Positions 21,642-25,553 of a stretch of 64,000 bases of DNA are shown piece by piece (the first letter of the stretch is position 1; each line of letters starts with the position of its first letter). Made by a program: the position numbers and the translations under genes. Source of the DNA: an uncultured Gemmatimonadaceae bacterium (lineage in GTDB: Bacteria; Gemmatimonadota; Gemmatimonadetes; Gemmatimonadales; Gemmatimonadaceae); NCBI GenBank assembly GCA_963829055.1, contig CAWHHI010000020.1, positions 32,001 to 96,000 of the forward strand. The letters run 5' to 3'. The notes under the pieces are model-generated. The model was not told where the DNA came from. It worked only from the letters and a program-made list of their open reading frames with translations, and did not search any database.

Positions 21642-23464
21642 TTAGAATCCGGGCGGGTGCTCGCCGGCCACATTGAACGATCGCTCCATCGCGAGCCCCA
21701 CGCGCGCGATCGTTCCCTCGTCGAACATGCGGCCGATCAGCGTCACCCCGTGCGGCACGCGACGCGGCGGGTTGAACTTCGGCAGCGGATTCGCCGGATC
21801 GGGGGCCCAGTCGCTCCGTGCCTCGCCGACCTCGACGAACCCCGCCCGCAGCGTCAGCGACGGATGCCCGGTGAAGTTCGTGACCGTGAGGATCTCGTCG
21901 CGCAGTGATGGCACGAGCATGAGGTCGACCTGCGACATCATGCGCTGCATTTCCATCGCGAACTTCCGTCGCAGGCGATCCCCCTGCACGAAGTCGACCG
22001 CCGAGAGGAACCGCGCCTCGCGGAACAGGTTCGGCCACGCGTCAGGCACCTGGACCTTGAGCTGATCGTCCTGGCCACTCAGCGTCAGCTCCTCGAACGC
22101 CGCCGCGGCCTCGGCGAAGAGGACGGGCATGAGCGAGCTGTGCGGCCAGTTCGGCCAGCGTCAGCTCCATCGGCGACATGCCTAACGTCTTGACTCGATC
22201 GAGCGCGGCGCGATCGACATCCGTGGCCGGCGCCTCCTTCATCCACACCGGGAAGTAGCCCACCTTGAGACCGGCGACCGATCCGCCCGCATCGAAATCC
22301 AGATGGCTCGGCACACTCGCCACGTCGCCGGCATCCGGGCCCGTGATCGCCTGCAGCACGAGCATCGCGTCCTCGACGCTGCGCGTCATGGGCCCGAGCT
22401 TGTCGAGCGACCAGCACAGCGTCATCGCGCCGGTGCGCGGAACGCGACCGTACGTCGGACGCAAGCCGGTGACGCCACAGCGCATCGCCGGCGCGACGAT
22501 GCTGCCGCCCGGTCTCGCTGCCGATCGAGAAGCCGACGAGCCCCGCGGCCGTTGCGGCGCCCGGGCCAGCGCTCGATCCGGACGCGCCCTCCTCGAGCAG
22601 CCACGGGTTCATCGTCTGACCGCCGAACCAGATGTCGTTGAGCGCCAGCGCGCCCAGGCTCAGCTTCGCGATGAGCACCGCGCCGGCATCGGTGAGTCGC
22701 TTGACGACGGCACTGTCGGCGTTAGGCACGCGATTGCGGTACGGCTCGGCGCCCCACGTCGTGGGAATCCCGGCGGTGTCGAGCAGATCCTTCACGCCGA
22801 ACGGAATGCCATGCAGCGGACCTCGATACTTTCCAGCCGCGATCTCCGCGTCGGCCTGCTTCGCTTTCGCGAGTGCCTGCTCGCGTGTGAGCGTGATGAT
22901 GCAGCGGATCTTCGGATCGAGCCGCTCGATACGTGCGAGGTAGATCCCCGTGAGTCGTTCGGACGTGAGCTTTCGGCTCTGAATCCATCGAGAGAGCCGG
23001 GTGACGGGTGCGAACGCGATCTCGTCGTCGGTCGCGGGGAGTGGCCCAGCGATCGGCGGCTGACCGCACGAACCGATCGCGCTGGTGGTCAGCGTTAGGC
23101 CCGGCAGCATCGGATCCCACACCGTCGCCGGCGCGAGCTCGGGCTCGAGCGCGACCTTTCTCGGACCCGTGCGACGCTCCAGCATCGGCGCCATCGCCCG
23201 CCGCCAACTGCCGACGGCCATCGCGCGCTCGGCCTCCGTCATCGTCACCTGCATCAGCTTCTCGGCCTCGGCGAACGTCGTCGCGGTGACCTCGGGGCCG
23301 GCGGCGGGTGCGGTGTTGAACGCGACGGGCGCGCCGGGCGTCGTCGGCGTCCCTGACGGCGTCGCGGGAGACTGCTTGGCGGTCTCGCCTTCACCACGAC
23401 AGGCGGCGACGGCGCCGAGTACCCCGAGCGGGGCGCGGATGAGGAATTGTCTGCGAGTGTTCAC
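21642..23464 (-). CDS. Amidase signature family protein with Tat signal (frameshifts near 22510 and 22145)
   Basis: TRRQFL, GPLHGIPFGVKD, GASGSSAG, IGSETG, GLRPTYGRVPR, NFTGHPS. Confidence 0.88.
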
Positions 23465-24740: not shown

Positions 24741-24830
24741 CGTCACCCGAGCCGCAGCGAGGGATCTTTTGAAGTCATGTAGCCAGTCGGCCACAAGACT
24801 CAGAAGGTCCCTCGCTGCCGCTCGGATGAC
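24741..24830. repeat. REP-like element, family 2A (degenerate)
   Basis: GTCACCCGAGCCGCAGCGAGGGATCT...AGGTCCCTCGCTGCCGCTCGGATGAC. Confidence 0.8.
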
Positions 24831-24850
24831 ACTGCGCTATGCATGCGCCC

Positions 24851-25553
24851 TCACCCGTCCAGGCGCCAGAACGCTCCCGTCAAACCCGCCTGCTCGAAGA
24901 TCGCGTGCGCCTCGTCCATCGTCGCACGGCGCCACGTTGACGACAGCCGATTGTGAAACCACGGCTGTGCCAGACGCCATAACGCGTCCAGGCTGAACAC
25001 CGCGCCCACCGGGATCCCCGACGTCGCGCTCCATTGCCTGACGTGCTCCTCCGACCGGAAGAGTCGCATCGTGCTTCACGTGAAGACGATGTCAGCCCAC
25101 CAGCGGGCAGCAGGCACCGCGAAGTGGACCACGGCGTCGGGCTCGTGCGCTCGTTAGGCGACCATCCCGAACCTCGAGGCCGAGCGGCGCAGCACAGTCC
25201 GCACACCGGGTCGCGATCGTGGCGTCCATCGGCCGTCCCGCGCCTGCCAGCATCGCCGGAACACCCACCGCGTCCCAGATGCAGTTCGCGTAGACCGACC
25301 GATCGCCGAGGCGCACCGAGAAGTCGGTGGGCACGCCCGCCAGCGGCGCCGCCATGAGGATGTCGCGCGAGCTCGGCTCGAGCACGATCGCGCGTCCCGC
25401 CGCCAGCCTATCGAACGCCGCCGCAACGTCGTTGTCCCCTAATCCGAGATCACGAGCGACGCTCGCGACCGACGGCGCTCGCCCATCCAGAAAACCGTTC
25501 AGTATGGTTAGGCGCACGCTCGCGTCGAGATCCGTCACGGCACGGTCGCTCAC
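24851..25553 (-). CDS. merB: MerB-like organomercurial lyase, candidate selenoprotein (in-frame UGA 25076-25078, plus a frameshift near 25145)
   Basis: N-terminal HTH-like region, ANCIWDA (Cys/Asp catalytic motif), CADC, then VHFAVPAARWWADIVFT-UGA-STMRLFRSEEHV, continuing in frame to 24851. Confidence 0.75.
25041..25072 (-). promoter_or_regulatory. Bacterial SECIS-like hairpin
   Basis: Starts 12 nt after the UGA: CUCUUCC-GGUC-GGAGGAG stem-loop with a G-initiated loop 19 nt from the UGA. Can be extended by ACG(A)UGC/GCACGU. Confidence 0.65.

Follow-up and report, generated by a model that had tools for sequence, protein, structure and literature searches.

The minus strand of the DNA analysed here, a 64,000-nt stretch from an uncultured Gemmatimonadaceae bacterium (assembly GCA_963829055.1, contig CAWHHI010000020.1, positions 32,001 to 96,000; hereafter 'the window'), carries a merB-like gene whose in-frame TGA (25078-25076), judging by its conservation among homologues, almost certainly encodes selenocysteine (Sec), as residue 159 of the product. 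That this is a real, hidden selenoprotein gene belonging to a large clade of MerB fold we hold to be equally close to certain. The best explanation of the data as a whole is a single Sec-encoding gene for a stand-alone MerB-fold enzyme, with the frameshift that interrupts it being an assembly error, and we regard this composite reading as probable rather than assured.

Organization of the merB-like gene

The gene is spread over two frames of the minus strand. Its GTG start overlaps the stop codon of the upstream M28 peptidase gene, and after ~25146 a second frame reads EPDAVVHFAVPAARWWADIVFT-TGA(25078-25076)-STMRLFRSEEHV..., with 74 more codons to the TGA at 24853-24851, which confirms the in-frame TGA and the roughly 74 downstream codons reported in the initial annotation of this DNA. 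The residues before the first of these TGAs read ...WWADIVFT, and the 3' part of the gene ends in a W/R-rich C-terminal extension that lies past the region alignable with MerB. Both gene halves exceed the cut-off of the Pfam MerB model PF03243 (42.8 and 38.3 bits vs a cut-off of 27). The features of the locus are as follows.

25146..25553 (-): 5' portion of the merB-like gene, 136 codons from the GTG at 25553; encodes the N-terminal winged-helix domain and the initial half of the MerB core (Pfam PF03243, E 9e-11)
25272..25283 (-): C-I-W-D motif (in NCIWD), Cys codon 25283-25281, Asp codon 25274-25272
25194..25205 (-): C-A-D-C motif, first Cys aligned with MerB Cys117
25142..25146 (-): frameshift of the assembly; compared with public-run contigs, position 25142 is substituted and 25146 carries one additional base
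24851..25144 (-): 3' portion of the merB-like gene; 97 codons, then the stop TGA 24853-24851
25076..25078 (-): in-frame TGA, predicted selenocysteine codon; residue 159 of the 233-aa product, MerB Cys159 column
25046..25063 (-): predicted SECIS upper stem-loop CUCUUCC-GGUC-GGAGGAG; loop from 19 nt past the UGA, beginning GG
24741..24831: palindromic repeat, REP-like, directly 3' of the merB-like gene and outside the conserved unit

In the window, the neighbours of the merB-like gene are peptidases and a luciferase-like monooxygenase. Between 25550 and 28353 (minus strand) the M55 D-aminopeptidase, M28 peptidase and merB-like genes overlap by their start and stop codons, an arrangement that is not conserved in homologues. 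The palindrome at 24741-24831 has perfect arms (-75.8 kcal/mol over 120 nt), and blastn finds 152 pieces of it genome-wide, many of them partial copies. As the contigs of three public runs have 12 different letters in place of positions 24766-24850, this REP-like element appears to have been inserted or remodelled recently.

Conservation of the UGA across homologues

The 3' piece of the gene has matches in 46 of 201 sampled genomes of the same family. Used alone as a query for related loci, the 97-residue 3' piece gave no matches, and an alignment of 3'-piece matches retrieved at least 579 related stretches from one-per-species genomes. The best 80 of these at least 579 stretches come from Gemmatimonadota, Acidobacteriota, Actinomycetota, Chloroflexota, Planctomycetota, Myxococcota and Dormiibacterota and, having been ranked by likeness to the Sec form, over-represent close relatives; the closest named loci among the matches listed are from Gemmatimonadaceae. 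We read 129 loci and removed six duplicates and two without the UGA column, leaving 121 distinct loci from seven phyla (locus L042 is from genome G134, marked unpublished; the tallies of selA and merA given below include genomes G033 and G007). The codon at the UGA column is TGA in 112 of the 121, TGC or TGT in seven, TCA in one broken copy and ATT in one distant, degenerate copy, and TAA, TAG and TGG occur in none. The choice of search patterns cannot have biased the result towards TGA, since one lay upstream of it and the other asked for Cys. The downstream frame is kept as well, with 72-92 codons following the TGA in complete loci (the N-terminally broken copy L141 excepted), and so is the hairpin described in the next section. 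With the column itself corresponding to MerB Cys159, these counts support the earlier proposal that the UGA stands for Sec in place of the second Cys. The TGA form is present in 37 of the 201 genomes of the family sample. Genome G026 has two full-length Sec-form paralogues (L025, L142).

Gene callers were expected to split the gene, and they do: 94 of the top 120 database hits are short, and all but one of these (93/94) end exactly before the UGA column. Among 73 full-length database relatives, Cys occupies this column in 63 and Trp in two (P0026 and P0030, which could be TGG variants or gene calls made with TGA as Trp). These two Trp proteins, and the ATG that 63 of 80 loci have three codons past the TGA, would be in keeping with a TGA that is a true stop, the gene being split and restarting at ATG 25069, or with another code that reads TGA as Trp or Cys. 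We consider this extremely improbable, since (i) Ile codons replace the ATG in 17 of the 80 loci; (ii) a stop in this column is always TGA and never TAA or TAG; (iii) the UCA tRNA of the source genome scores as tRNA-Sec; and (iv) the TGA form tracks selA. A TGA=Trp code and a split gene were both rejected. The merB-like gene and its neighbours moreover end in TGA, so that the code is standard.

A hairpin under selection at the RNA level

Sec insertion at the UGA would call upon a bacterial SECIS (bSECIS), and the stem-loop CUCUUCC-GGUC-GGAGGAG that had been pointed out 12 nt past the UGA was verified at 25063-25046, where RNAfold gives the stem (-18.3 kcal/mol for 45 nt, z -2.9, with 3 of 200 shuffles equally good). 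The bSECIS model, as described in a recent catalogue, has a loop of 3-9 nt with G in position 1 or 2, a stem of 4-16 bp, a spacing of 16-37 nt and an MFE of at most -7.5 (PMC13188914), and the hairpin lies within the model's four published constraints with its 4-nt GGUC loop, 7 bp, 19-nt spacing and -18.3 kcal/mol. The corresponding hairpin of locus L046 folds at -9.9 over 28 nt.

Such a hairpin alone is weak evidence; 77 of the 675 TGA triplets on one of the 20 contigs (C1) are accompanied by a stem of 7 bp whose loop G lies 16-37 nt away, and a genome-wide scan for a UGA with a hairpin returned 256 matches, mostly chance. It is conservation that lifts the hairpin above chance, because TGA is found in such a large majority of the distinct loci and because the synonymous codons underlying the stem-loop are fixed. 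Thus, the Phe codon is TTC in 112/112 TGA loci, the Arg codon CGG in 98/110 (background 0.28 in the same genes) and the Ser codon TCG in 91/94 (background 0.36 in the same genes). Six or seven of the seven pairs are kept in 99 of the 112 TGA loci, whereas 1000 synonymous redraws gave 57 such loci on average and 71 at most, and loop position 1 is G in every TGA locus (112/112). In pair counting, 18 cells were changed on both sides vs 2.7 in shuffles, and the hairpin exceeded all slid controls for both cells paired and covariation, although these figures are not probabilities because the relatives are not independent. The hairpin sequence is nearly invariant over seven phyla, and the RNAalifold consensus retains only the four core pairs of the seven. 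Among the seven loci with a Cys codon, one reaches six pairs and six have two to four. Taken together, the hairpin is under selection at the RNA level. In Sec decoding, SelB on this hairpin 12 nt downstream would deliver Sec-tRNA to the UGA.

Selenocysteine machinery and its co-occurrence with the TGA form

A search of the source genome for selABCD, which the initial annotation had left to be looked for, found the complete set: tRNA-Sec (UCA) at 71 bits, and selA, selB and selD above their cut-offs. All three conditions that the initial annotation had named as refuting a Sec codon were thereby checked, and none of them held. The selB gene has several frameshifts in its C-terminal half (G000:C16:758154-760002, L010), in the same assembly. 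The selD gene (G000:C16:625102-626214; L001, L012) likewise encodes a selenoprotein (CAG-U-ASK); it has both a TGA in frame and a hairpin, and is located directly upstream of tRNA-Sec. Compared with bacterial SECIS-dependent Sec insertion, which employs SelA, SelB, tRNA-Sec and SelD, the source organism has all four genes as well as a conforming hairpin, and its recoding is of the ordinary kind.

In the family sample, selA was found in 35 of the 37 genomes with a TGA form vs 108 of the 164 others. The two TGA genomes without selA are 78% and 85% complete and have tRNA-Sec; selB was sought in both and not found. Among genomes of the sample that carry Cys forms, only three of seven have selA. 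Outside Gemmatimonadota, selA accompanies TGA forms in 47 of 50 genomes, these being 50 of the 74 non-duplicate loci, picked outside that phylum. Overall, selA is present in 143 of the 201 family genomes, far exceeding the genomes with the merB-like Sec gene, and the selenoproteome of the lineage may thus include other unannotated genes.

The frameshift near 25146

The frameshift previously noted near 25145 is present in the assembly, and its interpretation as a sequencing error is probably right. Contigs from two public runs (X1 and X4) span 25146 at ~99% identity without the additional base and with an open frame (runs X2 and X17 do not cover the frameshift site), and indels are frequent in the assembly, where 11 of the 32 genes tested are split over frames (this being the one genome scored). 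The amidase gene at 21642-23464 (minus strand), split over three frames, probably reflects another assembly indel. As related contigs are without the base and the assembly is rich in indels, we consider it very likely that the additional base at 25146 is an assembly error. The intact product would comprise 233 residues with Sec at position 159. RNA run X17 gave no sign of expression, only short contigs of other organisms being found over the UGA-hairpin stretch.

The X1 and X4 contigs differ from the window at other sites, indicating that they derive from related strains and not from the same one. This, the existence of the frameshift in the assembly and the occurrence of broken copies among the relatives (L132, L141) would be compatible with a pseudogene, that is, a real selenoprotein family of which the present copy has decayed, with the base at 25146 genuine in the strain. 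We deem this improbable, as the frame is open in two independent runs at ~99% identity, assembly frameshifts affect selB in addition to the test genes, and the triad, the UGA and the hairpin are all undamaged.

Fold and active site

The initial annotation spoke of a MerB-like lyase. The likeness to MerB stands, in fold and in triad, whereas lyase activity is suggested by these two features only. A family profile compared with the PDB matches MerB2 and MerB only, and in the profile alignment C91, D94, C117 and U159 correspond to MerB Cys96, Asp99, Cys117 and Cys159, at ~20% identity to MerB; the NCIWD motif had accordingly been assigned correctly to Cys96/Asp99. The Cys/Asp/Sec triad is invariant in 108/108 full-length Sec loci, in which Trp, His, Phe and Glu residues near the triad are invariant too, and both Cys of the C-A-D-C motif are present in 93 of the 108. 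Modelled with AlphaFold, a close homologue (L018, with Cys for Sec; pLDDT 96.6) resembles MerB2 (5C17) with a Z of 19.3 and MerB with Z 15-16, and has ~30 extra C-terminal residues. Sequence and model together make it highly probable that the protein combines an N-terminal winged helix with a MerB core that harbours a Cys91/Asp94/Sec159 site.

Residues 3-70 of the L018 model match the winged helices of DtxR, IdeR and MntR (Z 8-10), which would also suit a metal-sensing regulator whose winged helix binds DNA and whose Cys/Asp/Sec site is the sensor. This role is very unlikely, as the alignments to MerB2 and MerB also cover this N-terminal region (model 4-198), making the winged-helix domain a family trait, and as the flanking genes show no pattern of orientation or identity.

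Cys-containing relatives of the predicted enzyme fall into more than one type. A Cys/Asp/Cys triad is found in 29 of the 63 full-length database relatives with Cys at the UGA column. In a sister subfamily (L043, L126-L129, L131), a Cys-x-x-Cys and a distal Cys replace Cys/Asp/Sec, and the hairpin is absent; this Cys/Cys/Cys subfamily is found with or without Sec machinery, and its triad occurs in 6/6 full-length Cys loci and 25 of the 73 database proteins. In a tree of 134 sequences (FastTree, midpoint root, 55 of the 108 Sec loci drawn randomly, no MerB or SaoL outgroup), a few Cys/Asp/Cys proteins fall among the Sec forms, but the basal nodes are supported too weakly to put events in sequence. 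A full-length relative with 32% identity, annotated as hypothetical, is present in a plasmid collection, on Ralstonia megaplasmids (98 of 103 records).

MerB holds R-Hg between two thiolates, and Asp99 gives a proton to the carbon (PMC10114901). By analogy, we infer that a selenolate version of MerB chemistry is the best-supported mechanism for the Sec protein: Cys91 and the Sec159 selenolate would clamp a soft metal bearing an organic group, and Asp94 would pass a proton to the carbon, upon which the metal-carbon bond would be cleaved. On the strength of this analogy we lean, with some reserve, towards MerB-type metal-carbon cleavage.

Relation to SaoL and canonical MerB

Sec at the MerB Cys159 column is already known from SaoL (NF040728), which has been described as a MerB-like organometallic lyase selenoprotein of putative activity and which older annotation had cut short at the UGA (Haft and Gwadz, bioRxiv 10.1101/2022.07.06.499078). 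Akin to SaoL, the present clade has the MerB fold, Sec at the Cys159 column and Cys/Asp at Cys96/Asp99, as well as the same U-x5-F spacing in a by-eye comparison with sequences from the deep-Sep supplement (PMC12013277). It differs from SaoL in five respects: (i) its members score 28-50 bits vs the curated cut-off of 140; (ii) Sec is preceded by T (sometimes by A, N or S) instead of the C of SaoL, none of the loci read for the clade having C before U; (iii) ~74 residues follow Sec vs ~50 in SaoL; (iv) the nine-gene SAO neighbourhood does not surround the merB-like Sec gene; and (v) the clade occurs in Gemmatimonadota, Acidobacteriota, Actinomycetota, Chloroflexota and other soil-type lineages, whereas SaoL has been described in anaerobes. 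SaoC was sought in the source genome and not found, in a search run without a positive control.

With MerB (EC 4.99.1.2, NF033555, PRK13239; PDB 3F0O, 3F2F, 1S6L) and Bacillus MerB2 (5C17), the clade shares the fold (Z 15-19), equivalents of Cys96, Asp99 and Cys117 and the position of the second chalcogen ligand. The fourth signature residue, Cys159, is however replaced by the chemically analogous Sec, there is an extra C-x-x-C and a W/R-rich C-terminal extension, and a mer operon or merA link is lacking. Five full-length Sec homologues and the 5' half from the window reach 21-67 bits vs cut-offs of 200 (NF033555) and 193 (PRK13239). As these scores and those for SaoL are far below the curated cut-offs, membership of either SaoL or canonical MerB was rejected; the clade is predicted, by analogy, to work like both and is a member of neither.

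In light of the literature, we note that SaoL is the sole MerB-like entry given in a 2026 catalogue of 119 prokaryotic selenoprotein families (PMC13188914), and that the representatives given in a 2022 review (PMC9312934) and in the deep-Sep supplement (PMC12013277) are of the CU type only. A term search of the main texts of BSepDB (PMC13326102) and SelCysML (PMC13745706) returned no MerB. In the parts of the literature searched, no description of the present clade was found, and BSepDB may already list members as MerB-like.

Genomic context and a possible link to mercury

The genomic context argues against ordinary mercury resistance. The source genome (86% complete) has neither a merA over the cut-off nor merT, its three best MerA-like genes falling below the MerA cut-off. 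In the family sample, merA was found in 4 of the 37 TGA genomes vs 25 of the 164 others, a search that can miss some because only seven candidates were scored per genome; in the 50 genomes of other phyla, merA exceeded the cut-off in two. None of 207 flanking genes (105 upstream and 102 downstream, the immediate neighbours of 111 loci) is a mer gene, and clustering together with Pfam scans revealed no conserved context, the largest shared neighbour cluster comprising 8 of 112 loci. That mercury is the natural, main substrate seems to us rather doubtful. As set out in an earlier study of MerB, Hg(II) would stay in the cell if the enzyme acted in the absence of MerA, a difficulty for which that study has no explanation, and many genomes with canonical MerB are also without merA; the same study describes MerB variants that bind other metals, and its MerB screening relies on Cys159 (PMC8261052).

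The main rival to the lyase reading is a metal-binding or redox role, in which the same selenoprotein would bind, sequester or chaperone a soft metal(loid) ion or act as a Cys-Sec redox pair, without cleavage. The missing link to merA or a mer operon and the scattered, housekeeping-like neighbourhoods are what such a site would lead one to expect, the Cys/Cys/Cys of the sister group suggests plain three-ligand binding, and there is the precedent of other metals being bound by MerB variants (PMC8261052). Yet the proton-donor Asp, as expected for MerB-type protonolysis (PMC10114901), does not vary in any of the 108 Sec loci, and the MerB fold extends over the whole length of the protein, and we judge a non-cleaving site to be possible but unlikely. 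A cleaving enzyme would be stand-alone and mer-independent: the freed metal would not be given to MerA, and would stay on the selenolate or move to cell thiols. Its natural substrate may be an organometal(loid) other than methylmercury.

Implications

Our results add a widespread selenoprotein clade, with at least 579 confirmed stretches in one-per-species genomes and with hosts that are mostly without the usual mercury-resistance genes. Its database entries are cut short (93 of 94 short homologues), and it is consequently discarded in merB screens for which Cys159 is obligatory. Tentatively, the clade could represent selenium-dependent organomercurial lyases, by which aerobic soil and sediment bacteria would demethylate methylmercury without merA, the mercury being held on selenium, although we think this unlikely. 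If true, merB surveys would have missed the clade, because gene callers cut the gene before the second catalytic residue and surveys demand Cys159, and it may rank among the commonest bacterial selenoproteins of soils. The clade makes testable what role MerB-type proteins have without MerA, a question raised before (PMC8261052), and, since natural Sec, Cys/Asp/Cys and Cys/Cys/Cys versions coexist, whether a selenolate helps or blocks metal-carbon cleavage.
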